DNA of 64,000 nt from an uncultured Eubacteriales bacterium (GTDB lineage: Bacteria > Bacillota > Clostridia > Oscillospirales > CAG-272), in NCBI GenBank assembly GCA_934402395.1, contig CAKRTQ010000012.1:7751-71750 (forward strand), in the 5' to 3' direction. Under the pieces are notes generated by a model that had not been told where the DNA came from, searched no databases, and was given only the letters and a program-made list of their open reading frames with translations. Position 1 is the first letter of the stretch. Every line of letters starts with the position of its first letter. Below are positions 2,251 through 29,062 of this stretch, piece by piece. A program made the translations under genes and the position numbers.

Positions 2251-2721
2251 TCAGGCTATATTGCCGTATATGTTACAGCCGATTGAAACATCTATATCAT
2301 ATGTATTGGTTGTTATGAAAAGAACTTTCCTCTTATATACAGCAGTACCATACGCTATATTGTCTGAATAGCTGTTTTCATGAGCGGACAATGACCAAGA
2401 CTTTTCATAAATAACAGACGAGTAAGTGGAGTTTGTGCAAACAGCAGATACCCCTTCATTTACTTTAAAGGTTCCTGTTAATGTGTATGTCCATTGCAGA
2501 TTATCTTTAGAGTCATAAAGATTGACTATTTTTTCGCCCAACTTTGTATAGGTCGTGGACTTTGTGGATTTTGTGGATTTTGTAATTGGAGACTGCCTAA
2601 TTACGGTTACCATATAGCTGCCATCTTCAAAATGTACCGTAGTGGAACTGGTTTTATAAGTTTCTACTGAAATGTGTTCAGGACTTTCGGCACATATTGT
2701 GTTAAGCGGAGCAAAAGTCAA
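2251..2721 (-). CDS. beta-rich hypothetical protein, probably a 5'-truncated fragment
   Basis: Only a TTG start is present, with an in-frame TGA immediately upstream. No SD and no signal peptide. Contains a KSTKSTKST repeat. Its start abuts head-to-head the truncated start of the Rhs gene. Confidence 0.35.
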   Translation of the reverse strand: MTFAPLNTICAESPEHISVETYKTSSTTVHFEDGSYMVTVIRQSPITKSTKSTKSTTYTKLGEKIVNLYDSKDNLQWTYTLTGTFKVNEGVSAVCTNSTYSSVIYEKSWSLSAHENSYSDNIAYGTAVYKRKVLFITTNTYDIDVSIGCNIYGNIA

Positions 2722-4884
2722 TCATATGTGTATAACACAAACAACGGAAAACTTGACATACTGACGTACGGAAACGGTCACAAATGTAAATACATTTATG
2801 ATGAACTTGACAGAATAAAAGAAATACAGTATAATACAAGTAGCACTTCGACCTCATTTACAACTGCATATACATATGAATATGATGCAAATGGGAATGT
2901 AAGCAAAATAACCGACATGCTGAGCAGTCAGGTGACGGTTTTTTGGTACGACAGTAAGGGAAAGCTACGCAATTACTACGTCAACAAACGTAGCGATGAG
3001 AATGACCAGTCCGCGCTGTATTTTTACTATGACAACGAGGGCAGACCGGTAAAGCGCGAGTATTACAGAGATTACAATGCGTCCGGAGTGACGAATGCAA
3101 TTGCGGAAACCGGTATCGTATATAATGATGACGGCTCGGTCGCGAGTATAGGCACCGAAGTGCAGGGTATGATCGTTTCGGCTGAATATTCATACGACGA
3201 TCTTTGGCGTACATCCGCAACTGTGTGGAAGATAGGCTCCTACGATGCCAATCCCCCTGCAACGATCACGCAAAGCTACACCTACTCAAACTATGAGTAT
3301 GAGTATGATGGGGATGAAGAGAGCGAGATCTGCGATACTCCGCTCATACACTCGGTAACCACATCAAAGCCCGACGGCAGCGAAACACTTTATTATACCT
3401 ACGACGAACGCGGGAACATAATGTTGATCCGCCGCGGGGTGAACGATATAGTGTGCCGTTATGCATACGATTCTCTCGGACAGCTCATCCGCGAAGACAA
3501 CAGCGTACTTGGCAAAACGTACGTATGGACATATGATAAAGCGGGCAATATTCGCAGTCGTGAGACATATGCGTATACTACCGGTAATCTCGATTCGGTC
3601 CAGAATACGGTAATATACGGTTATGATACCGGCAGCTGGGGCGATCTTCTCATATCGTTCAACGGTCAGAGCATAGCATATGACGGCATAGGCAACCCCG
3701 GGACATGGAACGGCAGCGCCCTTACATGGCAGGGCAGACGTCTCATGTCTTACGGTTCGAATACTTATACCTATAATGCAGACGGTATAAGAACGAGCAA
3801 GACCGTAAACGGGGTAGAGCATATATATCATCTCTCCGGAACGCAGATTCTCAGTGAAGAGTGGACAGAGGGCAGTGTTCAGCACATACTGATATATGTC
3901 TACGATGCCTCGGGACAGCCGATAGGGATGTCGCACTATGAAAACGGTGAGCAGCGCGGGACATATGTCTTTGTGAAGAATATTCAGGGCGATATCACCG
4001 GCATATATGACGATGAAGGCACTTGCCTCGTCACGTATACATACGATGCCTGGGGCAATGTTACCGTATCGTATTCTAACGGCGGTGCCTCAACTGCGGC
4101 AAAATATAACCCGTTCCGTTACAGAGGTTATTACTACGATAACGAGACCAGCCTCTATTACCTTAACAGCAGATATTACGATCCCAATGTAGGCAGATTC
4201 CTTAATGCGGATGGTTCTGTAAACGCCAACGGCGACCTTATCGGATTCAATATGTTCGCTTATTGCGGAAATAATCCGGTGATGTGGCGTGACCCGTCCG
4301 GTACGTATTGTGTTAGACTAGCTGACGACATGACGATGAGTCTGATCAACTTGTCGTTTGCGCTTGCTTGCATTGGAACCGGTTATTTGGCATGGACCAG
4401 TGCGACCGGAAAATTATCTCGTTCTTCGACCAGTTTCCCGATTGCTGATATTGATGTAATAGATGTAGTCAAGCCTGTTTGGCGTAGTAAAAATAGGGAA
4501 GTTGCCATAGCTGATGAGGCGGAGAAGGTCGCAACCGATGTTTCGACTGCTCAACATGGGAAATATTACGGAGCACATGCATTGGACAAAAATAGTGCCC
4601 TAATACCATTAACATCGCCAATGACGCTCGAAGAGGCTATTGCTTGGATAGATACGGTGTGTATTATGAGAGGTTATGGCGACGTAAGCATGGATAGTAC
4701 TCATATATGGGGTGTATATACTGTTAATCAGTCTGATGCGCGGATACTTGCGAGTGCTGTCGGGGCTGCTCCGTATGTCGATGGACCGCATAGTGCTGCT
4801 GGCTATATGCATTACCACATTAAAGGAAAAAAACTCAGGGGATTCAAGAGTTTTCATGTATGGTTTTCAATGAGGGGGATATAA
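2674..4884 (+). CDS. Rhs/YD-repeat polymorphic toxin, 5'-truncated, with unique C-terminal toxin domain (CT1)
   Basis: Many YD repeats (YxYDxxGN/R). The Rhs core-end motif is RYYDPNVGRFLNADG...FAYCGNNPVMWRDPSGT, followed by ~190 unique residues. YD-repeat similarity starts abruptly near 2715, and no N-terminal trafficking region is present. Confidence 0.85.
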   Translation: MFRTFGTYCVKRSKSQSYVYNTNNGKLDILTYGNGHKCKYIYDELDRIKEIQYNTSSTSTSFTTAYTYEYDANGNVSKITDMLSSQVTVFWYDSKGKLRNYYVNKRSDENDQSALYFYYDNEGRPVKREYYRDYNASGVTNAIAETGIVYNDDGSVASIGTEVQGMIVSAEYSYDDLWRTSATVWKIGSYDANPPATITQSYTYSNYEYEYDGDEESEICDTPLIHSVTTSKPDGSETLYYTYDERGNIMLIRRGVNDIVCRYAYDSLGQLIREDNSVLGKTYVWTYDKAGNIRSRETYAYTTGNLDSVQNTVIYGYDTGSWGDLLISFNGQSIAYDGIGNPGTWNGSALTWQGRRLMSYGSNTYTYNADGIRTSKTVNGVEHIYHLSGTQILSEEWTEGSVQHILIYVYDASGQPIGMSHYENGEQRGTYVFVKNIQGDITGIYDDEGTCLVTYTYDAWGNVTVSYSNGGASTAAKYNPFRYRGYYYDNETSLYYLNSRYYDPNVGRFLNADGSVNANGDLIGFNMFAYCGNNPVMWRDPSGTYCVRLADDMTMSLINLSFALACIGTGYLAWTSATGKLSRSSTSFPIADIDVIDVVKPVWRSKNREVAIADEAEKVATDVSTAQHGKYYGAHALDKNSALIPLTSPMTLEEAIAWIDTVCIMRGYGDVSMDSTHIWGVYTVNQSDARILASAVGAAPYVDGPHSAAGYMHYHIKGKKLRGFKSFHVWFSMRGI
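3595..4284 (+). repeat. Rhs core repeat, copy 1 (approximate bounds)
   Basis: Direct DNA repeat with 5605-6302. Long identical runs include ggcgatcttctcatatcgttcaacggtcagagcatagcatatgacggcataggcaaccccgggacatggaacgg. Confidence 0.85.
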
Positions 4885-5423
4885 TGAAAGAATATTATTT
4901 TATAACTTACGACTATGTAGATGGTGCACATATTTATTACGATATAAAAGGTGACGATCTGCAAGAGCTTATAAACGTTTGCGTCAAATATTGTACTGTG
5001 CTCAGCTTAACATACTGGCCGGGGCAGGAAAGCGTACGTGAAAAATTTCGCAAGTATGAGCTTAGCGAAGAGGAATCGCGCCCGTTTGCCGCAGTTGCAA
5101 CATGGCGGGCGTACAACGATGACTTTACAACAGTCAATATTTTTTACAGGATATGCCCGGAGCTTATTGATGAATTTCTGAAAATGAGCGATGGTCGCTT
5201 AACCGGGTGGTGCAGGTTTGAAGATGAGAACTATCCTGAGGATCCGTCATTTTTCCGTGAGGATGCAAGTGTATTTTTCAATCCGGTGGTTCATGAAGGA
5301 CTTTACTTTCTTCATCCAAGAGACGATGAGGACGTAAGCAACATAGTTTGTCATCCGGGGTGGTGTGTCAACACACGTGGCAATAAGTTACTCACGATAG
5401 ATTTCGATAAATTGAAACCATGA
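4884..5423 (+). CDS. putative cognate immunity protein for CT1
   Basis: The ATG overlaps the Rhs stop (TAATG at 4882-4886), with a GAGGGGG SD inside the toxin 3' end. It is a 179-aa acidic cytosolic protein. The call is positional. Confidence 0.6.
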   Translation: MKEYYFITYDYVDGAHIYYDIKGDDLQELINVCVKYCTVLSLTYWPGQESVREKFRKYELSEEESRPFAAVATWRAYNDDFTTVNIFYRICPELIDEFLKMSDGRLTGWCRFEDENYPEDPSFFREDASVFFNPVVHEGLYFLHPRDDEDVSNIVCHPGWCVNTRGNKLLTIDFDKLKP

Positions 5424-5554
5424 TCAGCAATATTGTTTGTGCTTGAACAAGCAAAACCGTAAATGGAGTGAAGCAAATGTATCACCTCATAGGTACACGT
5501 ATACCTGAAAAGGGCGAACCGTTGGTGGTTATAAGACTCTAACTTTCATTCCCC

Positions 5555-5581
5555 CCCCGCCGTGCCGACGGCACGGCGGGG
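5555..5581. repeat. GC-rich perfect hairpin at the 5' boundary of orphan Rhs cassette 2
   Basis: CCCCGCCGTGCC-GAC-GGCACGGCGGGG: 12-bp stem, 3-nt loop. Confidence 0.8.
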
Positions 5582-6860
5582 ATGGACAAGGCATCACAAC
5601 ATCGGTTCGGTACAGAATATGGTAATATACGGTTACGATACCGGTAACTGGGGCGATCTTCTCATATCGTTCAACGGTCAGAGCATAGCATATGACGGCA
5701 TAGGCAACCCCGGGACATGGAACGGAAGCGCCCTTACATGGCAGGGCAGACGGCTCATGTCGTACGGCTCTAATACTTATACCTACAATGCCGACGGTAT
5801 AAGAACGAGCAAGACCGTAAACGGAGTAGAGCATATATATCACCTTTCGGGAACGCAGATACTTGACGAGGAATGGACCGAAGGAAACATCCACCATCTC
5901 ATGGTGTATGTTTACGATGCATCCGGTCAGCCGATAGGTATAAGTCATTATACATACAACGGAACGCTCGTATCTGAAAATGACTATCTGCTCGTTTCCA
6001 ACATCCAGGGCGACATAATCGGTATCTACGACTCCACCAGGACCCGCGTTGTAACGTATGTCTATGATGCATGGGGGCGTATACTCTCTACCACCGGGAC
6101 CGGCGCTAATACCATCGGCGTATATAACCCGTTCAGATATCGTGGTTACTACTACGATACCGAAACCAGCCTCTACTACCTCAACAGCAGATACTACGAT
6201 CCCAACGTAGGCAGATTCCTTAATGCAGACGACTACATAAACGCCAACGGCGACCTTATCGGATTCAATATGTTCGCTTATTGCGGCAATAATCCGGTGA
6301 TGCTTACTGATTATTATGGATACAGCGCTTATAAGTGCGGTCACAATAACAATCCGGATAAATGCAGATATTGCAAGAAAGAGCGCGAAATTGCTCAAAT
6401 GGCGGGAGTCCGGTATTCGCAGAGTAGAATTCAAGAAGATGCCCAAGTTGATGATGATACACCTATAAACTATAATGGTGCATATTCACAAGCTCAAACT
6501 ATAACATCATTGACAACTAACGCTTTTGCATTATTGCTTACGGTAACATCTCAAGGTGTTGATACTATAGCATCTATGTATGTGACCGGGTTTGGATATC
6601 TTGTAACAGCACCAATAAATATAGTGCAAACATGGAACAATCCGAATTTAGGTACCAAAGGAAAGGTGCTGCTAACTACATATGATGTGATGGTTGCTGC
6701 GAGCGGTGTTGGCATGGTATTCGGTATGGCGAACTGGTGGAATGTTACAGGTTGGGCGGCGTTGGGGATTTCTGTTGTTTATACAGTAGTCACGTATGCT
6801 GTCGAGTATAAATTACAAGAGTATTTAGAGAGAAGGTACTACAATGAATACGCACGATAA
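5562..6860 (+). pseudogene. orphan Rhs C-terminal cassette 2 (core fragment plus distinct hydrophobic toxin tip CT2), no credible start
   Basis: From ~5605 it is near-identical at DNA level to 3595-4284 of the main gene. The only start is a GTG inside the hairpin. After NNPVM the C-terminus diverges and contains several hydrophobic segments. Confidence 0.7.
5605..6302 (+). repeat. Rhs core repeat, copy 2 (approximate bounds)
   Basis: See copy 1. The central part is more diverged. Confidence 0.85.
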
Positions 6861-7173
6861 GACTGTGGGCTTTTTTGACAAAGTATCACACATTATTGCA
6901 TATTCATACATAGCACATTTTGTATGTGGACTTTTGGCATACGATGGACGAAATTGGTGGACTGAATATAGTGTTACTTGGTATCGTGGCGCGATCAACT
7001 TCTTTCTATCATCGTTTGCGATAGCAATCAATAGCATTTTGGTGTGCATTTTCATGAAAAAAGCAGCACCGCCTGTGAAATCCCCCAAAATCATAGTCAA
7101 CTGGGTCGTTGCAGTTGTACCAATTGTTCTTGCATGGCTGTCGATAATACTTGATTTGGTGCTTATACAGTAG
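6844..7173 (+). CDS. putative membrane immunity protein for CT2
   Basis: Overlaps the cassette 3' end, with AGAAGG SD. It is 109 aa with ~3 predicted TM segments. The call is positional. Confidence 0.5.
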   Translation: MNTHDKTVGFFDKVSHIIAYSYIAHFVCGLLAYDGRNWWTEYSVTWYRGAINFFLSSFAIAINSILVCIFMKKAAPPVKSPKIIVNWVVAVVPIVLAWLSIILDLVLIQ

Positions 7174-7362
7174 TTATACATCAGATAAGTAGCAGTATTC
7201 ATTATGACTTATATGATATTGAATGGTATGGTTGCGAAAATGGCGGGGTCTGTAGAAATAACATATGTTTACCCCAATGCAATCAAAGGTCGATGCAACA
7301 TTCCGTTTTTATGATATGCGATTAAAAAGCAATACCTTCTCTTTCCCTAAAAGAGGTTTGCT

Positions 7363-7395
7363 CCCCGTAGCTGTGCCAATGGCACGGCTACGGGG
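7363..7395. repeat. GC-rich hairpin at the 5' boundary of orphan Rhs cassette 3
   Basis: CCCCGTAGCTGTGCC-AAT-GGCACGGCTACGGGG: 15-bp stem including one G.U. It shares the CCCCG..GTGCC/GGCAC..CGGGGAT frame with the hairpin at 5555-5581. Confidence 0.8.
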
Positions 7396-7484
7396 ATTGG
7401 GGATGGGCAGGGTGTCGCATACGTCAGCGCAGGATCGGTAGAATATGACCGTATCAGCAGTGTAACGAATGCGCTTGTACGTAA

Positions 7485-8372
7485 GGACACATCTCTAATA
7501 CTTATACCTACAATGCCGACGGTATAAGAACGAGCAAGACTGTCTATGGTGTCAAACACATATATCATCTCTCCGGAACGCAGATACTCAGTGAAGAGTG
7601 GACGGAGGACAGAGTTCAGCACATACTGATATTTGTCTATGACGATTCGGGACAGCCGATAGGAATGTCGCACTTTGAAGATGAAGTCAAAAACGGTGAC
7701 TACCTGTTTGCGAAGAACGTCCAGGGTGATATTACCGCTGTTTATGATGCAAATGGTACATGCCTTGTAACGTATACCTACGATGCGTTGGGCAACACCA
7801 GAGTGAGGTACTCAAACGGCGGTGCCTCAACTGCGGCAAGATATAACCCGTTCAGATATCGCGGTTACTATTACGATACCGAAACGAGCCTTTACTACCT
7901 CAACAGCAGGTATTATGATCCTGCAGTCGGCAGATTCCTTAATGCGGATGGTTCTGTAAACGCCAACGGCGACCTTATCGGATTCAATATGTTCGCGTAT
8001 TGCGGAAACAACCCTGTAAACAGAGTTGACCGCACGGGACAATTTTGGAGTGAAATTTGGGAGTTTGCCAAAATAGCCGTTGCCGAAATTGGAAAAGCCA
8101 TGGAAGTTATGTCTCCCGCTTACGCTGGGTGTGGTGGAGTAGCTGTAGCTGATGGGCCTCTTCCTTTCGGAGATATTATTGCAGCAGCAGTCATAGTATT
8201 GTTAACCGCAGGTGCTATAGGATATGGAATTTATCAAGCAGTACAGGCTCCAGCTATTTCTGTTCCAAAAGTTGAAGAAAAAGATGAAGCAATACCTGCA
8301 CCTCCGCCTACTCCAACAGTAATTTATAGATATAGCGGAACGTATGATTTTAATTGCCGCCTCGACATCTGA
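7485..8372 (+). pseudogene. orphan Rhs C-terminal cassette 3 (start-less; degenerate and frameshifted upstream remnant; tip CT3 probably truncated)
   Basis: The frame opens after TAA at 7482-7484 and the first ATG is at 7665. NTYTYNADGIRTSKTV...RYYDPAVGRFLNADG...CGNNPVNRVDRTGQ is homologous to the main gene. A YD-like remnant at 7414-7480 is in another frame. Confidence 0.65.
7497..8017 (+). repeat. Rhs core repeat, copy 3 (shorter, approximate bounds)
   Basis: Homology begins at aatacttatacctacaatgccgacggtataagaacgagcaag. Confidence 0.8.
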
Positions 8373-8930: not shown

Positions 8931-9018
8931 GGGACCTGCCGAAGGCGGGACACCGACTTCGATTTTACGGGTTCAATTCCCGGCGATGCCTTGCTATCAG
9001 AATGAAAGGAGCGGCACA

Positions 9019-10227
9019 ATGATTGAAATCAAAGGAAAGGTAAATACAGCTATCTGTTATGCAGCGGTTGTAGAGGACGAAGCGATCGAACAGATCCGCA
9101 GAATGTGTGACTATGATTTCACAGCAGGATCTCAAATACGGATCATGCCCGATGTACATGCCGGAAAAGGCTGTACGATCGGCACCACTATGACGATCAC
9201 TGATAAAGCGGTTCCCAATATCGTTGGTGTCGATATCGGTTGTGGTATGTATACTGTTGAGCTGGGTAAGGTGGATGTTGATTTTGAAAAAGTCGATGCT
9301 GCCGCTCATTATATTCCCAGCGGAAGAGATGTTTGGGAAGGGCGCATGGAGCGCTTTGACCTGACCGGGCTTCGCTGCTATAGAAACTTGAAACAGGCAA
9401 AGCGCTTGGAGAGGAGCCTGGGGACACTGGGCGGAGGAAACCATTTTATCGAGATTGATACTGCTTCGGATGGCACAAAGTATTTGGTGATCCATTCCGG
9501 CAGTCGTAACCTGGGCAAGCAGGTGGCGGAGTTCTATCAGTCTTTAGCTATCGATTTGAATGCCGGTAAGGCAGATTATTTCGAGCGTCGGGATGAGCTG
9601 ATCCGTACATATAAGGAGCAGGGCCGCAGGGCTGAGATCCAGACCGCATTGAAGGCTATGGAGAAGGAATGGGCGGCAAAAGAGCCGACGATCCCCGCAG
9701 ACCTTTGCTATCTGTACGGAACCTACTTGGATGACTACCTCCACGATGTAGAGATCTGCCAGCAATTTGCAAGGCGCAGCCGTGAAAGAATGGCGGAGAT
9801 CCTTTTGGAAAAGACCGGAATGACTGCGATCTCTTCCTTCCACACCATCCACAATTATATTGATACGAAGGAAATGATCCTCCGCAAAGGCTCTATTGCG
9901 GCTCATTACGGAGAACTTGTCCTGATTCCCATCAATATGCGGGACGGCAGTGTGTTGGCTCGCGGCAAAGGGAATCCGGAATGGAATTATTCAGCCCCGC
10001 ATGGAGCCGGCCGTCTTATGTCTCGTGCAAAGGCACGCGAAACGTTGGATTTAGAGGTGTATAAGAAGACAATGGAGGGTATCTACACAACGTCGGTCAA
10101 TGAAGCCACCATCGATGAAGCACCCATGGCTTACAAGTCGCTTGAAGACATTATCGATGTCATCAGAGAGTCTGTCGATGTGATCGAGTTACTAAAACCT
10201 ATTTACAATTTTAAGGCATCTGAGTGA
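9019..10227 (+). CDS. rtcB: RNA 3'-phosphate/5'-OH ligase RtcB
   Basis: AAAGGAG SD. Family motifs present: IMPDVHAGKGCTIG, GGGNHFIEID, HSGSRNLG, IPINMRDGS, APHGAGR. Length 402 aa. Confidence 0.9.
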   Translation: MIEIKGKVNTAICYAAVVEDEAIEQIRRMCDYDFTAGSQIRIMPDVHAGKGCTIGTTMTITDKAVPNIVGVDIGCGMYTVELGKVDVDFEKVDAAAHYIPSGRDVWEGRMERFDLTGLRCYRNLKQAKRLERSLGTLGGGNHFIEIDTASDGTKYLVIHSGSRNLGKQVAEFYQSLAIDLNAGKADYFERRDELIRTYKEQGRRAEIQTALKAMEKEWAAKEPTIPADLCYLYGTYLDDYLHDVEICQQFARRSRERMAEILLEKTGMTAISSFHTIHNYIDTKEMILRKGSIAAHYGELVLIPINMRDGSVLARGKGNPEWNYSAPHGAGRLMSRAKARETLDLEVYKKTMEGIYTTSVNEATIDEAPMAYKSLEDIIDVIRESVDVIELLKPIYNFKASE

Positions 10228-10264
10228 TAAAACGCTCCTGCGCCGTCTGATTGGAGGAGTTGAA

Positions 10265-10459
10265 ATGTTGAATCGTTTGAAAAATGAGGCGAATATCGCT
10301 TGCACAGAAAATGGCGCAGTTACCAACGCAAGAACACTTAGCATATCTCTGAGTTCGGGCGTTACGATGATCCGGTACAGTCACGCAAGGGAAACCGAGT
10401 GTGGCGGTGTAGGAATAAACGTTTGCATCCTTGGATCCGGTGAGGCTTTATTTATATAA
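10265..10459 (+). pseudogene. short ORF whose first ~25 aa look like the N-terminus of a TROVE/DUF2828-type protein; possible gene remnant
   Basis: Strong GGAGGAG SD lies 5 nt before the ATG. MLNRLKNEANIACTENGAVTNARTLS carries the TENGA-type N-terminal motif, after which similarity is lost in all frames. 64 aa. Confidence 0.3.
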
Positions 10460-10773
10460 ATCCGATGAACGGAAATAATGAAGTCGCACAATATACAGGT
10501 GTGGATCGGCTGATCGGGTTTACATCAATGAAGTATGGACCGGCGGTCGGAGGGAAGTCCCTCTGCGGTCCCGGGCTGAGAAGCTCGGAGGCGGAATGCC
10601 GGTACTGTCAGACGCCCCGATAATTAAATTCACACTGCTTTACACGGTATAGTGTTTGCCGGATGATCCAAAGTCCCGCAATACTATAAATAGAACACGA
10701 TTTGTACGGCTTATTCGCTAATGGGTACTTTAGATTTAAAGAGAATCGGTCTTATGAGTCGTGTTCACTGTAG

Positions 10774-10839
10774 AACGCAGCTAGTAAAGCTTATTTCGCC
10801 GTATGGCTTTTGATCAGATTCAGTTTTACGATCCGCGTT
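10774..10839 (+). ncRNA. candidate structured RNA module 1 (CAGCUAG-helix-CUUAUU type)
   Basis: Outer helix AACGC (10774-78)/GCGTT (10835-39). Conserved AGCTA internal loop. Inner helix GTAAAG (10784-89)/TTTTAC (10824-29). Confidence 0.4.
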
Positions 10840-10845
10840 CGGTAG

Positions 10846-10905
10846 CAGCTAGTGGCGCTTACTGCTTTTAAAGCGTTCTATCAGTTAGAAAAGTGCCGCG
10901 ATTTC
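10846..10905 (+). ncRNA. candidate structured RNA module 2
   Basis: CAGCTAG (10846-52). Inner helix GTGGCG (10852-57)/TGCCGC (10894-99) covaries with modules 1 and 3. The outer helix is not obvious. Confidence 0.35.
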
Positions 10906-10913
10906 GCAAAAAA

Positions 10914-11040
10914 GCAAACAGCTAGCCGGGCTTACTTCTTCAGTAGGATCCGATCGCAGAGGTTCGATTCCTCTCGCTCCAACGGAGTGTAGCTCAGTGG
11001 CAGAGCGTCGGAATGAAATCAGTCCGGCAATTCAGTTTGC
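10914..11040 (+). ncRNA. candidate Y-RNA-like (YrlA-like) RNA: long-range stem enclosing a circularly permuted tRNA-like domain
   Basis: Outer helix GCAAAC/GTTTGC (10914-19/11035-40). Inner helix GCCGGG/TCCGGC (10925-30/11023-28). Cloverleaf core at 10949-11012 has T arm AGAGG-TTCGATT-CCTCT, a loop-closed acceptor CGCTCC-AAC-GGAGTG, TA, D arm GCTC-AGTGGCA-GAGC, and anticodon-stem equivalent TCCGA/TCGGA. Confidence 0.6.
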
Positions 11041-11066
11041 GCATTGTCTTATGGGGAGGAGAAAAA

Positions 11067-13106
11067 ATGTTCGATCAGTATTTCCGGAAATTTTTGTTTT
11101 CCAAGGGGACTTTAGTGAGCAGTGCAACGAGTCCGGATGCATTTGCGGCTCGTTTTGCCCTTGCCAATATGTTCAATATCAGCATTACGCGCGGTCAGCA
11201 GTATGCACATGAGGATATGATCTCTTTTGTTGCTGATATGCTCGGAGAATGCGTTCCGCAGCCTTTTTACCGTAATTTCCCCAAATCCGTAAGAGAACTT
11301 GCCCCCAATCAACTGTTGTTTGATCAGTTGTGCCATTATAGCATTACATACGGACTCGGTAACTTTGCGGAAGCCGGCTACTCTCTCTTTGAGGAAGAGT
11401 TTGAGAGACTTGCTTTTAAGGAAAACGTTGAGATCAAGAAGTTCATAATTCTCACGGAATCGGAGGCGCATGAACGGCTTGCCGAATATGTTGAGGATAT
11501 GCTGAAGGGGACGCGCCCTTTGAGCGATGTGCAGTATGAGCTTGTAAAGACTTATATCGATAAGTGCAGCTACGAGATCAAGAACTGTGCATGCAAGGAT
11601 ACTGCCATACGGCTTTTGCTCGATACCGAAAATGCCAAGTATGCAAGGTTCCTTGCCCTTTCGGATGTTATAAAGCTTGTTGATACCATGAACTACGAGG
11701 GTTATAACAACACGAATATCAAGAAACTGAACCTTCGCAATCAGGACCGCAGATTCATTGCCAGAGTGATCAACGCTATCTTTGATGGCGGTCGCATAAA
11801 TGTCAGAGAGTGTTTTGAAAAGAAAGCGGTCTGGTGCGGGTTGCTTCACCATATTCACTATCACCCCAGGATTCCCGAAGCCGAAAGATTTGTTGCGCTT
11901 ATGCGGGGCAATGAAAACTGGTCGGTGTACTCCGGGTTTGAGCGTGCAATGACGGCTCGTGATATCAGAGCGGCAGTTACCTGCCTTCTTGAAGGCAAGG
12001 GATCCGGTGCGCTTTTCAGACATCTCAACTATATTCTCAGCAGGTGCACGGATGAGGAGGATGTGGCATTTGTTATGGAATCGCTCCATACCAAGAATGC
12101 TGTCGTGCTCATTCAGCTGATCATGCAATATGCGAATTATGTAGCCGATGCCGACCGCAAATTTAAGTTTACACGTTATAATAAGCTCAAGATACATACG
12201 GAAACTGACGAGGAGCAGTCCAAGAGGAAGTCTGCGCTTCCTTCCGAACGGGTGGATGAGCTTTCGGCGGTTATGTTTGCGAATCTCAGGAAGCTTCTCG
12301 CCGGCAGGCTCGGCAAAGTATATGTTGCTTCCGATATGTATAATATTGCGCTTCCTATTCAGGAAAACACCTCTAACGGCGGATATGGCGTTCTTCCCAA
12401 GGGTTCCAGACTCCACATCGAAGAAGGTAAAAAGATCCGCGCATTTACCTATTGGGAAAAGGTAAATGATATTGACCTGAGTGCCATCGGAATTACCGAA
12501 GACGGAAGGCAGGTAGAGTTTTCCTGGAGGAGCATGTTCAAATTGCAGTCCAATGAGATCGCTTTTTCCGGCGATGAAACCGCCGGTTATGGCGGTGGAT
12601 CCGAGTATTTTGACGTTGATGTAGCTCTTTTTAAGAAAAACCACCCCGAAATCAAGTACATGGTTTTCTGCAACAATGTTTTTTCGCGTGCTTACTTTTC
12701 AAAATGCCTGTGCAAAGCCGGTTATATGCTTCGTGATGTTCAGGATTCCGGAGAGGTGTTTGAGCCCAAAACGGTAAAGTCTTCCTTTGTAATCAATTGC
12801 GACAGTACGTTCGCATATCTGTTCGGGATCGATCTTGAAAAGAATGATTTCGTTTGGCTGAATATGTCATTTGGCAACAACGCCACCGTGGCAGGCAGCA
12901 CTTCCATGAAGTTTCTTATTGATTACTTCAAAATCACTTCTGTTATTAACATGGGTATGCTGTTTGAAATGCTTGCGACCGAGATCGTGGAGTCTCCCGC
13001 GAACGCTGACGTAGTGGTGTCCGATGAAGAGCTTGACGGGTGTGAGAATGCCGAGGTGATCAGATCCTGCGATTTTGAGAAGGTAATGGCATTGCTCAGC
13101 CGATGA
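11067..13106 (+). CDS. 679-aa protein: divergent TROVE/Ro60-like helical region fused to a TerD-fold C-terminal domain (tentative)
   Basis: GGGGAGGAG SD. TROVE-like strings: FEKKAVWCGLLHHIHYHP, and GSGALFRHLNYILSR (compare the Ro ALLRNL segment). The C-terminus LPKGSRLHIEEG..WEKVNDIDLSAIGITEDGRQVEFSW...FSGDETAGYGGGSEYFDVDV...IKYMVFCNNVFS matches the TerD pattern (DLDxSA...SGDNxTGEGxGDDE...). The coding call is secure; the function is inferred. Confidence 0.85.
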   Translation: MFDQYFRKFLFSKGTLVSSATSPDAFAARFALANMFNISITRGQQYAHEDMISFVADMLGECVPQPFYRNFPKSVRELAPNQLLFDQLCHYSITYGLGNFAEAGYSLFEEEFERLAFKENVEIKKFIILTESEAHERLAEYVEDMLKGTRPLSDVQYELVKTYIDKCSYEIKNCACKDTAIRLLLDTENAKYARFLALSDVIKLVDTMNYEGYNNTNIKKLNLRNQDRRFIARVINAIFDGGRINVRECFEKKAVWCGLLHHIHYHPRIPEAERFVALMRGNENWSVYSGFERAMTARDIRAAVTCLLEGKGSGALFRHLNYILSRCTDEEDVAFVMESLHTKNAVVLIQLIMQYANYVADADRKFKFTRYNKLKIHTETDEEQSKRKSALPSERVDELSAVMFANLRKLLAGRLGKVYVASDMYNIALPIQENTSNGGYGVLPKGSRLHIEEGKKIRAFTYWEKVNDIDLSAIGITEDGRQVEFSWRSMFKLQSNEIAFSGDETAGYGGGSEYFDVDVALFKKNHPEIKYMVFCNNVFSRAYFSKCLCKAGYMLRDVQDSGEVFEPKTVKSSFVINCDSTFAYLFGIDLEKNDFVWLNMSFGNNATVAGSTSMKFLIDYFKITSVINMGMLFEMLATEIVESPANADVVVSDEELDGCENAEVIRSCDFEKVMALLSR

Positions 13107-13471: not shown

Positions 13472-13834
13472 ATGAAAGATTTAAAATTATACAGCTCAGA
13501 CTTTTATTCATACACAAAAATGCTTTTGAGCGGGAACACATTCCGTATCATGATATCCAAGCGTCTGCTGATGCGTCCGCTGATCCCCGCGTGGGTATTC
13601 CTCTTTTTCATTATGATGATCCCCGGCAAGGTGTTTTTCTGGATAGCCGGATTTCCGTGTTTAGGGCTGTATGCCGTTTTTTTGCTCGGTAACTACCCGT
13701 ATTGGGAAGCTTGCAGCGTAAAGAAGCTGCCTTTTGTTTTGTGGAATGCGATCTGGGTCCTGTTTTTGAAGCTGATGACGATACCGGTGCTGAATTTGTT
13801 GGAGGTGATCATAAAGTGGACTTTTTATATATGA
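13472..13834 (+). CDS. small hydrophobic membrane protein (hypothetical)
   Basis: 120 aa with 3 hydrophobic segments. The 3' end overlaps the start of the next gene. SD is weak. Confidence 0.4.
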   Translation: MKDLKLYSSDFYSYTKMLLSGNTFRIMISKRLLMRPLIPAWVFLFFIMMIPGKVFFWIAGFPCLGLYAVFLLGNYPYWEACSVKKLPFVLWNAIWVLFLKLMTIPVLNLLEVIIKWTFYI

Positions 13835-15315
13835 ATTCACGTGAGCCTGCCGTTGAGCTGGACGTTCAAAAAGAGATCGTCTCCGGGGATGCTTTTTTCG
13901 GTAAGGCAAAGGAGTATGTCACTGGCGACCGTGAGACTTTGCTTTACCGGCAGGAATTTTTCCGCGATGTGCTTCAAATAAGTGAATTGCCGGAATTTCT
14001 GACGGCACTTCATGCGAAGCTCAACGAAATTTCACCCTTGATGCGGGGAGGGCAGGGCGCGGCGGGACGCGAGGAGAAGCTGCGCGATCTGCTTTATCCG
14101 GTCGTTTATATCGAGCTTGTGGAGCTAATTTGCAGATATCTGGAGCCGATCGCCGACAGATTGACCGCGCGGTCCTTGCTGGCGCTTTATCACATGGCGG
14201 ACAACGAAAAGCGGTCCGCGGAGTACGGCAGGATCGGCGAATATTATATGAAAAACAGCGCCCGGTTGCGTTCCGTACACAGCGTTACCGTGGGCATAAA
14301 TCTGACACCCATGTTTGAGCCTAAAGAGGCGGGGATCGTTGCGCTCAATTCGGAAGAATTCAGCTCGGGCGACTTTTGGGATCGGGTGATACGGATGGAT
14401 CTCGCCAAGGACGATTTTCATTGTATTGCGCCTCTGACGGTCATTGACAAAAAGCTCGGATATCAGGACAGTCAGCGCATGAATCATGCGCTGCTGAAGG
14501 GACTGGATGCCGTTGTCGGTGATGGTCTGCGGCATTGCAGCAAGAGCATAGAAAAATATCTGAAGGATGCATTGAAAAAATTCTATGAGTGGTCCGGGTC
14601 TCTCGGCTTTGTGACAGAAGCGGTCAAACGCATCACGGAGCTGAAGGAGAAGAGAATACCGCTTGCCTTTCCGACCGTCAGCGACCGCTTCTTGTTTGAT
14701 GTGGATTCCCTGTATGACGATTCATTGTGCCGTAAAAAGGACAAAAAAGACATCGTGCCGAATACTGTGCGTCTGGAACCGGATGTATGCTGTTATATTT
14801 TGACGGGACCGAACAGCGGCGGAAAATCGGTATTTCTGAACTCGCTTGCAGCCGCTCAGTATTATTTTCAACTGGGGATGCCGATCCCCGCGAAGGCGGC
14901 GTCGCTCCCGATATGCGATGCCGTTTTCAAAATCTCGGTCGAGGAGCAGGCAAATGCGGATCAGGTCGGCAGATTCGAGAAGGAGTGCATAACTCTTTCC
15001 GGCGTGCTGAAAAAATTCACTCCCCGCAGTCTGGCACTGATAGACGAAGCATTCACCTCCACCTCGGCAGAGGAAGCTGTGCCGATCGCCGCGAATTTTA
15101 TACGTGAGATATGCCGCATTGGGGGAAAATGCCTGTTTGTGACACATTATCATGAATTGGACGGATCGCAGCCGTCGGTGCGGCAATGCGGAGGGGCGGT
15201 AGACTATCTGCACACGGAAAGCGGCGGAGAACGCAGGACGTACACAGTTCTGCCCGGCAGCTCCGATCCGCACAGCGATGCGCATAACATTGCAAAAAAA
15301 TACGGTTTGCTGTGA
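13816..15315 (+). CDS. MutS-family ATPase domain protein (MutS domain V; no Smr or mismatch-binding domain seen)
   Basis: GGAGGTG SD lies 8 nt before the GTG at 13816. Walker A is LTGPNSGGKS, Walker B is LALIDEAFTSTS, and THYHEL is present. Confidence 0.8.
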   Translation: MDFLYMNSREPAVELDVQKEIVSGDAFFGKAKEYVTGDRETLLYRQEFFRDVLQISELPEFLTALHAKLNEISPLMRGGQGAAGREEKLRDLLYPVVYIELVELICRYLEPIADRLTARSLLALYHMADNEKRSAEYGRIGEYYMKNSARLRSVHSVTVGINLTPMFEPKEAGIVALNSEEFSSGDFWDRVIRMDLAKDDFHCIAPLTVIDKKLGYQDSQRMNHALLKGLDAVVGDGLRHCSKSIEKYLKDALKKFYEWSGSLGFVTEAVKRITELKEKRIPLAFPTVSDRFLFDVDSLYDDSLCRKKDKKDIVPNTVRLEPDVCCYILTGPNSGGKSVFLNSLAAAQYYFQLGMPIPAKAASLPICDAVFKISVEEQANADQVGRFEKECITLSGVLKKFTPRSLALIDEAFTSTSAEEAVPIAANFIREICRIGGKCLFVTHYHELDGSQPSVRQCGGAVDYLHTESGGERRTYTVLPGSSDPHSDAHNIAKKYGLL

Positions 15316-26677: not shown

Positions 26678-29062
26678 ATGAGCACAAACAGAAACCGTGT
26701 GATAAAAGAATACATTAACGATAACTATCCGAACGCAAAAATAGTCAGCTATGATGAGGGCAGCAGCGAGTGCGACCTTGTGTTTTACGATGACGAGGAG
26801 ATCAAAAAACTGCGGGGCGACTGGTTCCCGCTCTGCTGCTACCGCGACAAAAAAACCGGAAAGCTCACTTACGGGGGCAGGGGCAAGGTGTATCATACTT
26901 ATACCGAAGGCGAGACCGGCGCAGGCAAGACAACGCGCTTTGTGATGCAGAGCATCCGCGCGCTTTCAATGACCGCCGAAAAGCCGAGCTTTGTCATTGT
27001 GGACATACACGGGGAAATAATCGAGAATCTTTACATCCACCTCAAAAAGATGGGCTATGATATAAAGATACTCAACTGCGACGACCCCGCGCGGTCGGAT
27101 ACGTACAATCCGCTTGAAAAGATAGCCGTTGAGTGTTACGAGAGCGGCGAGATCGAAAACGATGCGCTCAACAGCATCAGGCGTATGTCGGAAATAATCC
27201 AGCCTGTGGAGTCGCGCAGCGACCCCGTCTGGGACCGCGGTGCGCGGTCATATACCAACGGAAGCATTCTTGACAAGTTTGAAGATCTCATCGCGGGCGA
27301 CATTCCGCTTTCCTGCATGACGATCTACAATATAATCCAGAACCATCATTGGCTGAGGCAGATAATAGACAACGGCTATAATTCGGACGGCATAAGCCGC
27401 GTGTCCCATTACCGCAAAAAGCGGGATGCACTGTCGGTTCAGAAGCTGATAGCCGTCACGAACGCCGCCGAAAAAACACGCGCATCGTATTACGGGGTCG
27501 TGGAAAATCACTATGATACATTCGGTCAGCCTGCATTTTACCGGCTGTCGTCAAACAGCACGATAAGTATAGACGGGTTTATCGACAGACCCACCGCCAT
27601 TGTCATACAGTCGGGCAGCACCAGAATAGGCGATGATCTTATATCGCTTCTTATGAACGACATATACACCGCCGCTGTCAGAACGGGAAAGTCCAGCCCC
27701 TGCAAAATGCTGCCGCGCAAGATACACTGCTTTCTTGATGAATTTGCAAACTGCAACATTGCCGATGGTCCCGAGTATATAAAAATGCTCACCACATCGA
27801 GAAAGTTCGGTATGTACTGGCATATGATACTGCAATGCGACGCGCAGCTTGACCGCAAATATGACGCCAACATAGCACGCATCATACGCGCCAACAGTAC
27901 CGAAATATTCATGGGTTCGCAGGACTATTCGACTCAGCTGCGTTTTGCAAAATCATGCGGGCAAAAAACGGTCGAGCAGCTCGGCTCGGAAATGAGACAG
28001 CAGGAGCCGGCGTTTGCAACGCTTGATCTTATGACTACGGACAAGCTTGACAGCACCGGGGAAGGATATATTTATGTAAAATCACCGCGTCACCCCATAC
28101 TCAGGTCGTTTATCGAAGCATTTTACAACTGCCTTGAATTCGAGACCGACGGTAACATTGACGCGGTATATCCGCACAATGATTTTGACTACCGCAGCAC
28201 CTGCTTTTATGTTGACGAGATCCCCGCAGCCATTTCGTCCGAGGCGTATGAGCTGGTGAAATATATCGGTCCCGAAAAGATGAAAAAAAGGGATATCATA
28301 AGGAAGTACGGCGCGCCGAATACTGCCGAATTACTGGCAAGGCTGGAAGCTAAGAATATTATCAGCCGCGATGCGAACGATGTTGTGAGCGTTGAACTCA
28401 ATATGCGCCAGCTTGAGCTGCTGGAGTTCAGGTATGAGCACGGACTCATGAAAAAAACAGGACCGCACAGGACCGGCAGAGGTCCGCGCTCATCCCGCGA
28501 GATCCGAGACATTCTGTTCGGTGCCGAGGTGGATGAGAATGACGAAGAAGACGACGATGAGGTGTTTGGCTCCGATGATGCGGATGTCGATTATATAGAC
28601 TTCAGCGATATCATCGGAGCGGCGAGCCGTGAGAGAGTAGTGACGTGCTGCGAGGACGACACGGACGATATGGAACATGAGCTTCGCTGCTATCTTGCCG
28701 ACAACGAGATCGACGTCACCGCATCGGACTTCGCCGGTATCACCTGCATTCCAGATGATATGAACGAATTTTTCTGCGCCTGCGAAGCATCCCGCGACCC
28801 CGCGCACTGCCCATGGCCGTCCGAGCTGCCCACTACAGGTTCGCTTTTGAAATGCGCTATCATAGAGGCATATCTGCGCCGAAACGATTATGCCGATATT
28901 GACAAATGGTCGGAGGGTATCAGCGCCGAGGTGGAGAAAATAAGCAACAGCGGATATTTTCCGCAGACAATGATCGATATTTTCAACAGCGCCGCGAAAG
29001 CTGTCGGTACCGAGCTGGATATTGAAAATATACGCGAGCTGAAAAAAATGCTGAATGCCTGA
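26678..29062 (+). CDS. soluble VirD4/TraG-like (FtsK-HerA superfamily) ATPase with acidic C-terminal extension
   Basis: Walker A is GETGAGKTT and Walker B-like is HCFLDEFANC, as in type IV coupling proteins. No N-terminal TM helices. Contains a DENDEEDDDE acidic tract. Confidence 0.7.
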   Translation: MSTNRNRVIKEYINDNYPNAKIVSYDEGSSECDLVFYDDEEIKKLRGDWFPLCCYRDKKTGKLTYGGRGKVYHTYTEGETGAGKTTRFVMQSIRALSMTAEKPSFVIVDIHGEIIENLYIHLKKMGYDIKILNCDDPARSDTYNPLEKIAVECYESGEIENDALNSIRRMSEIIQPVESRSDPVWDRGARSYTNGSILDKFEDLIAGDIPLSCMTIYNIIQNHHWLRQIIDNGYNSDGISRVSHYRKKRDALSVQKLIAVTNAAEKTRASYYGVVENHYDTFGQPAFYRLSSNSTISIDGFIDRPTAIVIQSGSTRIGDDLISLLMNDIYTAAVRTGKSSPCKMLPRKIHCFLDEFANCNIADGPEYIKMLTTSRKFGMYWHMILQCDAQLDRKYDANIARIIRANSTEIFMGSQDYSTQLRFAKSCGQKTVEQLGSEMRQQEPAFATLDLMTTDKLDSTGEGYIYVKSPRHPILRSFIEAFYNCLEFETDGNIDAVYPHNDFDYRSTCFYVDEIPAAISSEAYELVKYIGPEKMKKRDIIRKYGAPNTAELLARLEAKNIISRDANDVVSVELNMRQLELLEFRYEHGLMKKTGPHRTGRGPRSSREIRDILFGAEVDENDEEDDDEVFGSDDADVDYIDFSDIIGAASRERVVTCCEDDTDDMEHELRCYLADNEIDVTASDFAGITCIPDDMNEFFCACEASRDPAHCPWPSELPTTGSLLKCAIIEAYLRRNDYADIDKWSEGISAEVEKISNSGYFPQTMIDIFNSAAKAVGTELDIENIRELKKMLNA

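Follow-up and report, generated by a model that had tools for sequence, protein, structure and literature searches.

An RNA array between two genes of an uncultured Eubacteriales bacterium

We analysed a 64,000-nucleotide (nt) stretch of DNA from an uncultured Eubacteriales bacterium (hereafter the window), in which an element with the form of a circularly permuted tRNA lies between a gene for an RtcB-family RNA ligase and a gene for a protein of 679 amino acids (aa). The ligase gene (positions 8986 to 10227, plus strand; Pfam RtcB, E value 1e-53) is followed by an open reading frame (ORF) of 64 aa and then by about 600 nt without a called gene, after which the ORF of the 679-aa protein begins (11067 to 13106, plus strand), with a well-matching Shine–Dalgarno sequence about 10 nt upstream. 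The tRNA-like core (10949 to 11012, plus strand) was supported by a match to the Rfam YrlA family, by ARAGORN on its re-permuted form, by RNAalifold and by covariation in homologous loci. Reading the upstream regions of 80 homologous loci revealed a larger RNA module that contains the core as its insert, and showed that the window carries three such modules in tandem (10778 to 11035, plus strand) upstream of the 679-aa ORF.

A preliminary description had assigned each part of a cloverleaf to this region, and all the elements it named matched the plus strand base for base. From 5' to 3', the core comprises TCCGA (10949–10953), a 4-nt variable loop, TCGC (10954–10957), a T arm, AGAGG-TTCGATT-CCTCT (10958–10974), a loop-closed acceptor stem, CGCTCC-AAC-GGAGTG (10975–10989), the equivalents of U8 and A9, TA (10990–10991), a D arm, GCTC-AGTGGCA-GAGC (10992–11006), a single G (11007) and TCGGA (11008–11012), which pairs with TCCGA to form the equivalent of the anticodon stem (P2). 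As had been described, the acceptor stem is capped by the loop AAC and there is no anticodon loop, the chain entering and leaving through the anticodon-stem equivalent.

The element thus has neither the free 5' and 3' acceptor ends nor the anticodon loop of a canonical tRNA gene, and no tRNA was called in the window by ARAGORN. When the acceptor loop was cut and position 11012 was joined to 10949 by an artificial 7-nt loop, ARAGORN called a 72-nt tRNA, as compared with none in 300 shuffled sequences. This result and the covariation in homologues led us to reject a chance resemblance, and the compensatory changes described below led us to reject a tRNA pseudogene. A sensitive scan of positions 10600 to 11200 gave one meaningful match, to Rfam YrlA (RF02553) at 10951–11012 (35 bits, E value 6.3e-6, model positions 23–87 of 114), so that the YrlA model did recognize the tRNA-like part, although under its gathering score of 69; in the window as a whole no Rfam family reached its gathering score (Rfam 15). 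The single-sequence folding energy of the element was not significant (z of −0.58 and −1.59), and the support for the structure is therefore comparative, with no weight given to thermodynamics.

The same scan returned a weak match to the Rfam tRNA model (17 bits) at 10983–11047, in a different register. In the window and in one related locus (L002), GUCGGA (11007–11012) can alternatively pair with UCCGGC (11023–11028) in the 3' strand of the outer stem described below, forming an anticodon-arm-like hairpin with the loop AUGAAAUCAG, which explains the weak tRNA match. This pairing is not general in the family, and could be either a conformational alternative or a mere consequence of the shared CCGG cores. 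In another locus (L036), a 99-nt 'tRNA-Ser' called by ARAGORN at 5758–5856 overlaps a tRNA-like module at 5792–5907 and is probably a false call caused by the tRNA mimic.

The core is an insert in a module with a conserved anchor

All modules share the layout 5'-YAGCUA, a 7-nt 5' strand of a stem named P1, UUAYUUC (mostly written here as UUACUUC), an insert of 4–165 nt, the 3' strand of P1 and RAUWUCR-3'. P1 is a 7–8 bp stem of free sequence, with UUACUUC on the inner side of its 5' strand and RAUWUCR following its 3' strand. We refer to these constant parts as the anchor.

Two of the three modules in the window carry the anchor only. Module 1 (10778–10836, plus strand) matched the regular expression for the anchor and consists of CAGCUA (10778–10783), the P1 5' strand GUAAAGC (10784–10790), UUAUUUC (10791–10797), a 25-nt insert with a small hairpin, the P1 3' strand GUUUUAC (10823–10829) and the tail GAUCCGC (10830–10836); all seven P1 positions pair. 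It is orthologous to modules in L002 and in L001, a close relative of the window, and its P1 shows a compensatory change from U-A to C-G. Module 2 (10846–10906, plus strand), conserved in the same two loci, also matched the regular expression and was found at 10845–10906 by the covariance model introduced below (R1; 30.9 bits, E value 0.004). Its parts are CAGCUA (10846–10851), the P1 5' strand GUGGCGC (10852–10858), UUACUGC (10859–10865), a 27-nt insert, the P1 3' strand GUGCCGC (10893–10899) and the tail GAUUUCG (10900–10906). Module 3 (10919–11035, plus strand), which carries the tRNA-like insert, matched R1 over its full length (10918–11035, 87.8 bits, E value 4e-15). In it, CAGCUA (10919–10924), the P1 5' strand GCCGGGC (10925–10931) and UUACUUC (10932–10938) are followed by a linker (10939–10948), the core, a second linker (11013–11021), the P1 3' strand GUCCGGC (11022–11028) and the tail AAUUCAG (11029–11035), which ends 31 nt before the ATG of the 679-aa gene. 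This placement ahead of the gene implies co-transcription, and array and gene probably share a transcript. A simple promoter and terminator scan of 10200–11200 gave results at chance level, and sigma-70-like promoters were found directly upstream of the first module in four homologous loci (L001, L002, L052 and L022).

To obtain these homologous loci, we fetched 80 genome loci encoding relatives of the 679-aa protein (49–73% identity), and searched them and the window with a strict regular expression covering the anchor's 5' half. It matched 133 times on the strand of the gene as compared with six times on the opposite strand. The P1 5' strand had a perfect downstream complement in 122 of the 133 modules, and in a gapless alignment of the 133 anchors 98.8% of the P1 cells paired, with double compensatory changes at all seven pairs (365 cells), while moving the partner by one to three columns reduced pairing to 26–44%. 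Since the 3' strand had been picked as the best complement, we checked for selection bias: a 5' strand taken from another module found a perfect match in 27% of trials, as compared with 92% observed, and in 125 of the 133 modules the chosen 3' strand directly preceded the conserved RAU, which had not been used in choosing it.

The tRNA-like insert was evaluated in the same manner using 38 full modules aligned by sequence only (MAFFT). RNAalifold independently predicted an 8-bp P1, the T arm, a 7-bp acceptor stem and the D arm from this alignment. With a five-helix model, 96.3% of the cells paired (P1 99%, P2 85%, T arm 98%, acceptor stem 97% and D arm 99%) and double changes were present in 23 of the 29 pairs, as compared with 38–47% pairing in the controls slid by one to three columns; the stems of the preliminary description thus covary in related loci, well above the controls. 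The nucleotides of the tRNA core were retained, each in 35–38 of the modules (U8 in 37, A14 in 37, G18 in 38, G19 in 35, T54 within this range, and the A21, G53, Psi55, C56, A58 and C61 positions in all 38), which include the U8 equivalent, the GG of the D loop and T-loop positions previously recognized in the window. The Levitt pair 15:48 covaried, being G:C in 27 modules and A:U in nine.

R1, the covariance model built from the homologous modules, gave 45 matches above 50 bits over 40 loci and the window, leaving 44 true tRNA-like modules once a junction between real tRNA genes in L038 (see below) had been dropped, and anchor-only modules scored 29–44 bits. Nearly all matches lay on the gene strand beside the gene, with one weak match on the opposite strand (L068, 33 bits). 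As a negative control, R1 found nothing in the 80 listed viral loci containing a 14-base anchor pattern, indicating that the matches of that pattern are due to chance. Taken together, these analyses demonstrate that the permuted tRNA-like fold is real and has a conserved structure, and its location inside the P1 anchor, with compensatory changes over dozens of species, indicates that it has been selected in its permuted form.

The RNA array and the partner gene are linked in both directions

Starting from the protein, an array was present in at least 68 of the 80 genomes encoding it. In these loci and the window the arrays had one to four modules in tandem, and almost every module lay no more than about 630 nt upstream of the gene, with a median distance of about 30 nt between the last module and the start codon; in three loci (L040, L049 and L057) the modules were found just downstream of the gene instead.

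For the reverse direction, metagenome contigs were scanned with a pattern drawn from the RNA only (the anchor plus GGTTCGA), which returned 80 loci, 63 of them true modules according to R1 and many of these from human-gut metagenomes. The gene was found 20–290 nt downstream on the same strand in 49 of the 63; in another eight the contig was too short downstream to contain it, five carried a truncated gene remnant beginning MKEIYKDYLF, and one had no gene. The gene or a remnant was therefore present in 54 of the 55 loci with enough downstream sequence, as compared with none of the 17 chance matches to the pattern. In several human-gut contigs (L266, L271/L225, L242 and L213), what is left of the partner gene (MKEIYKDYLF...) downstream of an intact tRNA-like module and another anchor module ranges from the first few residues to about 190 codons, so that truncated or disrupted genes stand beside intact RNAs. 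No other neighbouring gene was conserved across the loci, and the array and the gene therefore form a self-contained unit. The linkage between RNA and gene is tight, two-way and evolutionarily deep.

Modules carry exchangeable inserts

The full tRNA-like module was found in about half of the loci. Other modules contained a T-arm hairpin alone (GGUUCGAAUCC) or short hairpins and linkers, and a frequent order was tRNA-like, T-arm, short and then the gene, with the order short, short, tRNA-like observed in the window, L002 and L030. Comparison of the window with L001 was informative, because the third module of L001 (2010–2070) retains the anchor (AGAUAGCCAGGCUUACUUC...GUCUGGCAAUUCUG) of the corresponding module in the window (10919–11035) and is missing the tRNA-like insert. 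This indicates that the insert is the exchangeable part and the anchor the constant feature, and that the tRNA-like insert was recently gained or lost as a unit.

In L038, positions 5047–5195 span the junction of two tandem tRNA-Lys genes, that is, the 3' half of one followed by the 5' half of the next, and R1 scored 52 bits at 5053–5173. We rejected this match as a module because it is the junction of real tRNA-Lys genes. Its score suggests that the permuted topology of the insert could have arisen from such a tRNA–tRNA junction.

The unit is also found in large phages

Distant homologues of the 679-aa protein were found in large phages and on plasmids. Rhodococcus phage Weasels2 encodes a 25% identical homologue (gp266) inside its tRNA gene region, with an RtcB gene 3 kb downstream. 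In the unannotated 390-nt gap after gp266 (L325 7872–8261; 85471–85860 of the record), four modules lie in tandem. Their anchor is a variant, GG(A/C)UUAA, P1, UUACUUC ... P1', GCUC(A/G)CC, so that UUACUUC is the same in Clostridia and in an actinophage. The third of these modules has a complete tRNA-like insert, which scored 65.6 bits with R1 (E value 6e-12) and 26 bits with the YrlA model. In IMG/VR, 12 phage contigs of 95–233 kb encode homologues (35–51% identity), and 10 of them contain two to six AGCUA-N7-UUACUUY modules within 500 nt upstream of the homologue. R1 found no module near the homologue on a faecal phage contig.

The partner is a solenoid and TerD-like protein

The AlphaFold2 model of the 679-aa protein, based on 41 sequences (predicted local distance difference test score, pLDDT, of 81), contains an N-terminal alpha/beta region, an alpha-helical solenoid at residues ~120–360, a beta-hairpin region, a TerD-like beta-sandwich at ~448–600 and a C-terminal alpha/beta region. 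The C-terminal part of the protein has the TerD-like motif SGDxTxG...GGSEYFD. The protein itself matched nothing in Pfam or PADLOC, and Pfam TerD (PF02342) was marginal in two of the 41 family members (E value about 0.04). Some NCBI records label homologues 'TerD family protein'. There was also a partial match to NCBIfam NF041916, 'MXAN_6230/SCO0854 family RING domain-containing protein'. TROVE and vWA domains were found in none of the 41 members with Pfam at E values of up to 1, Pfam gave nothing significant on 10 distant representatives, and neither did a PDB profile search with the family. Foldseek searches of the PDB with the whole model and with residues 121–445 alone (pLDDT 86) likewise returned nothing significant; the weak matches were generic solenoids (exportin, 14-3-3, TPR and BBSome), with Ro60 not among them. 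We conclude that the 679-aa protein is not a recognizable Ro60, although a very remote kinship is conceivable.

Public data contain more than 1,000 relatives of the protein, most of them from gut and rumen Clostridia and Lachnospiraceae, and these are either unnamed or labelled 'TerD family protein'. Among 1.84 billion cluster representatives, 2,333 were retrieved by a profile search at an E value of 1e-3 or lower.

Genomic neighbourhood

The position of the element downstream of an RNA ligase gene had been considered striking. RtcB does adjoin the unit in the window, but the constant partner of the array is the 679-aa gene downstream. Besides the window, RtcB adjoins the unit in six of the 80 genome loci (L001, L007, L010, L016, L026 and L060), two of which have a second RtcB paralogue on the other side, and in four of the 63 metagenome loci; the adjacency is therefore enriched but occasional, occurring in about 8% of loci. 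The upstream RtcBs of L007, L010 and L016 are 73–76% identical to that of the window, as compared with 55–57% for the partner proteins, suggesting that the linkage has been retained across lineages.

Co-oriented tRNA genes are another recurrent neighbour, and in several lineages their clusters surround or directly border the unit. In L038 (3070–8955), co-oriented tRNA clusters flank the unit, with 19 tRNA genes before it and nine after it, and tRNA genes also lie alongside the unit in L039, L045 and L058 (of the L038 clade), in L042 and L054, in L015, L034 and L061, and in the phage contig L340.

No TROVE domain was found in the window ORFs scanned, which comprised all those of about 300 aa or more and several shorter ones and included the ORFs tested between 2674 and 16959, indicating that the window has no Ro60 orthologue. 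PADLOC gave no meaningful match for the neighbourhood proteins. Directly upstream of RtcB lies a cluster of RHS/YD-repeat genes (2674–8372), with a 432-aa ORF that combines an RHS-associated core and a C-terminal extension and with RHS fragments separated by small ORFs, which looks like a polymorphic-toxin locus with orphan modules. Downstream of the partner gene, positions 13702–15315 encode a 537-aa protein with the ATPase domain V of MutS only (MutS2/KamC-like) and without a mismatch-binding domain, a gene that is kept there in contigs of the same species only. The window further contains a gene for a type IV secretion coupling protein (TraG/VirD4-like, 26678–29062), and beyond about 14 kb its G+C content is higher (0.50–0.57, up from about 0.43–0.47). 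An integrated conjugative element may account for part of the window.

A candidate ribonucleoprotein with similarity to Ro60 and its Y RNAs

YrlA is a tRNA-like Y RNA bound by the bacterial Ro60 protein Rsr (Chen et al. 2014, PMC4201824; Wang et al. 2018, bioRxiv 10.1101/312249), and its crystal structure is a close mimic of tRNA without a free CCA end (bioRxiv 10.1101/312249). Y RNAs combine a conserved Ro60-binding stem with variable effector modules, with several RNAs per locus and some that have just a T arm as their module (PMC4201824; bioRxiv 10.1101/312249). The modules described here resemble YrlA in the permuted tRNA-like domain with its T arm, loop-closed acceptor-like stem, D arm, short variable loop, elbow nucleotides and 15:48 covariation, a Levitt-pair signature that has also been reported for YrlA (PMC4201824). 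They further share the combination of a presumed protein-binding stem and a variable effector part, the occurrence of several RNAs per locus, some with the T arm only, and the location on the same strand as, and adjoining, the presumed partner gene. An occasional RtcB neighbour and carriage by phages are likewise common to both, since the Ro60/YrlA/YrlB system has them too, the Y RNAs of Salmonella adjoining RtcB in the rsr-yrlBA-rtcBA operon (PMC4201824, PMC7790460). At the protein level, the likeness to Ro60 is that of a large protein, encoded beside structured small RNAs, in which helical repeats precede a domain of a type known for divalent-cation binding; the C-terminal domain of the 679-aa protein, however, is TerD-like and not vWA, and Pfam finds no TROVE.

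From the structure of the modules, their deep linkage to the gene, the genomic context and this analogy, we favour, as a probable though by no means settled reading, a ribonucleoprotein comparable to that of Ro60 and its Y RNAs, in which the anchor would bind the encoded protein and the tRNA mimic would be an effector in the surveillance or repair of tRNA or other RNA. Each module is made of the conserved anchor and a variable distal part, which in module 3 is a complete tRNA elbow. The array would be processed into separate RNAs, and the adjacent alpha-solenoid and TerD-like protein would hold the conserved stem of the anchor. To an elbow-recognizing factor, for example RNase P, TruB, Dus or RtcB, the mimic could then offer a tRNA-shaped surface, or it could be a competitor of tRNAs for that factor, and the particle as a whole would act in the surveillance or repair of tRNA or RNA damage, to which the recurring RtcB, the tRNA clusters and the large phages with tRNA arrays point.

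Several observations weigh against this proposal. No RNA-binding domain is recognizable in the 679-aa protein, and neither its sequence nor its fold has a significant match in the PDB. About half of the loci do without the tRNA-like insert, indicating that the mimic is not essential to the system. Most loci lack RtcB and tRNA neighbours, and the loci that have them are partly related phylogenetically. R1 found no module near the homologues of phages LpeD and WXIN or of two plasmids (from B. mycoides and C. perfringens). In addition, the modules lie in the apparent 5' leader of the gene, and 15 loci have a single short module only, so that the anchor could be a purely cis-acting operator.

This last point leads to the main rival of the ribonucleoprotein, namely that the modules are leader elements acting in cis only, as operators that are bound by the encoded protein or by a small ligand and control translation or transcription, with no particle acting in trans. 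It would fit the placement of the last module, often 15–30 nt before the start codon and just ahead of the Shine–Dalgarno sequence, as well as the loci with one short module and the sigma-70-like promoters right upstream of the first module. The modules downstream of the gene in L040, L049, L057 and phage Weasels2 do not fit it, and up to six modules with different P1s, together with a full tRNA elbow with its tertiary contacts, are hard to explain as operators. We consider a purely cis-acting role rather unlikely, although the strongest of the alternatives. The two readings are also compatible, and autoregulation through the module beside the ribosome-binding site is quite possible in addition to a role in trans.

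An arrangement in the style of type III toxin–antitoxin systems, in which the processed array would act as an RNA antitoxin or regulator that neutralizes the adjacent protein in a mobile unit of defence or counter-defence, appears improbable. As in ToxI/ToxN, tandem short structured RNA units lie directly beside a single gene for a presumed binding protein, and the unit is mobile, being carried on large phages and plasmids; its genomic contexts vary without another conserved neighbour, and in the window it adjoins RHS toxin cassettes. However, such systems pair near-identical direct RNA repeats with the gene of a small endoribonuclease toxin, and the units here are not near-identical repeats, since the anchor alone is shared, every P1 is different and one unit carries a tRNA mimic. 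The protein, at about 680 aa, is about four times larger than in those systems, has no endoribonuclease, other nuclease or toxin signature and has no PADLOC match. Gene remnants stand beside intact RNAs, and some homologous genes have no detected array, while a strict toxin–antitoxin dependence would make a lone toxin gene unlikely.

The preliminary description had likened the topology to that of YrlA-class Y RNAs, and a further reading makes the element an ordinary member of the YrlA family of Ro60 Y RNAs. What holds of this reading is the topology of the YrlA tRNA-like domain, YrlA being the sole Rfam family matched, and the adjacency to RtcB as in Salmonella; membership of the family is contradicted by our analysis and very improbable. 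The YrlA class is characterized by a GNCGAAN0-1G motif near the 5' end, presumed to contact Ro60, by a TROVE Ro60 gene within about 4 kb on the same strand, and by modification by TruB and DusA, cleavage by RNase P and binding to Rsr in cells (Chen et al. 2014, PMC4201824). Of the four YrlA features compared here, the topology agreed, and the other three (the gathering score, the GNCGAA motif and the TROVE neighbour) did not. All copies scored 26–49 bits with the YrlA model (35 in the window, 31–49 in homologues and 26 in the phage), under the gathering score. Neither the 5' part of the module in the window nor its homologues contain the motif; what they conserve is a different anchor, YAGCUA-P1-UUACUUC...P1'-RAUWUCR, which neighbouring modules without a tRNA-like insert have as well. 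Neither the scanned window ORFs nor the partner protein contain TROVE, the partner being an unannotated alpha-solenoid and TerD-like protein in place of a TROVE/vWA protein, and fold searches do not retrieve Ro60. The hosts also differ, being Clostridia, their large phages and one actinophage, and so does the placement of the RNAs, for the most part within the partner gene's 5' leader.

Circularly permuted tRNA genes are known from red algae and some archaea, where the anticodon loop is kept and the transcripts are matured into functional tRNAs. A permuted or split tRNA gene or decayed tandem-tRNA junction, giving a functional tRNA after cleavage and ligation by RtcB or else a non-functional relic, would account for the 3' half of the cloverleaf preceding the 5' half with the acceptor ends joined by a short linker, for the tRNA call on the re-permuted sequence and for the nearby RtcB, and the L038 junction makes such an origin plausible, but we regard it as extremely unlikely because there is no anticodon loop and no conserved candidate for one in the short and variable flanking linkers, the acceptor stem is closed by tight loops of 3–10 nt without a discriminator or CCA, and the element is conserved within a larger RNA whose P1 anchor shows compensatory changes over dozens of species.

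Significance

The anchor, or an RNA link of the 679-aa family, is not described in Rfam 15 or in the literature that we searched (on YrlA, TROVE/TerD/RtcB, SCO0854/MXAN_6230 and clostridial tRNA-like Y RNAs), the coverage of which is incomplete, so that an earlier mention is possible. What is new here is the anchor and its protein partner, while a Y-RNA-like modular RNA with a tRNA mimic was already known. In broader terms, it seems to us an evenly balanced possibility that these units constitute a previously unrecognized class of bacterial and phage ribonucleoprotein, in which a solenoid/TerD-like protein of ~680 aa would carry from one to six anchor RNAs bearing interchangeable effector modules, one of them a complete tRNA mimic of a kind so far known only from Ro60-bound YrlA, and would act with RtcB and phage or host tRNA arrays in tRNA damage surveillance, repair or counter-defence.

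The compact motif formed by the anchor and P1 allows the annotation of hundreds of blank intergenic regions. The analysis also gives a testable partner and context (RtcB, tRNA clusters and phage tRNA regions) to a protein family that has no Pfam match and is at best labelled 'TerD family protein', although Clostridia of the human gut and the rumen commonly encode it and large phages carry it too. We know of no established function for the tRNA-like domain of bacterial Y RNAs, which has to our knowledge been studied only with Ro60, and the modules described here provide an independent system for asking what a loop-closed tRNA elbow recruits. If the proposed ribonucleoprotein is real, the tRNA mimic would be portable, serving two or more unrelated RNA-binding platforms. 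The modules also suggest that Y-RNA-like scaffolding is a strategy more general than one protein family.

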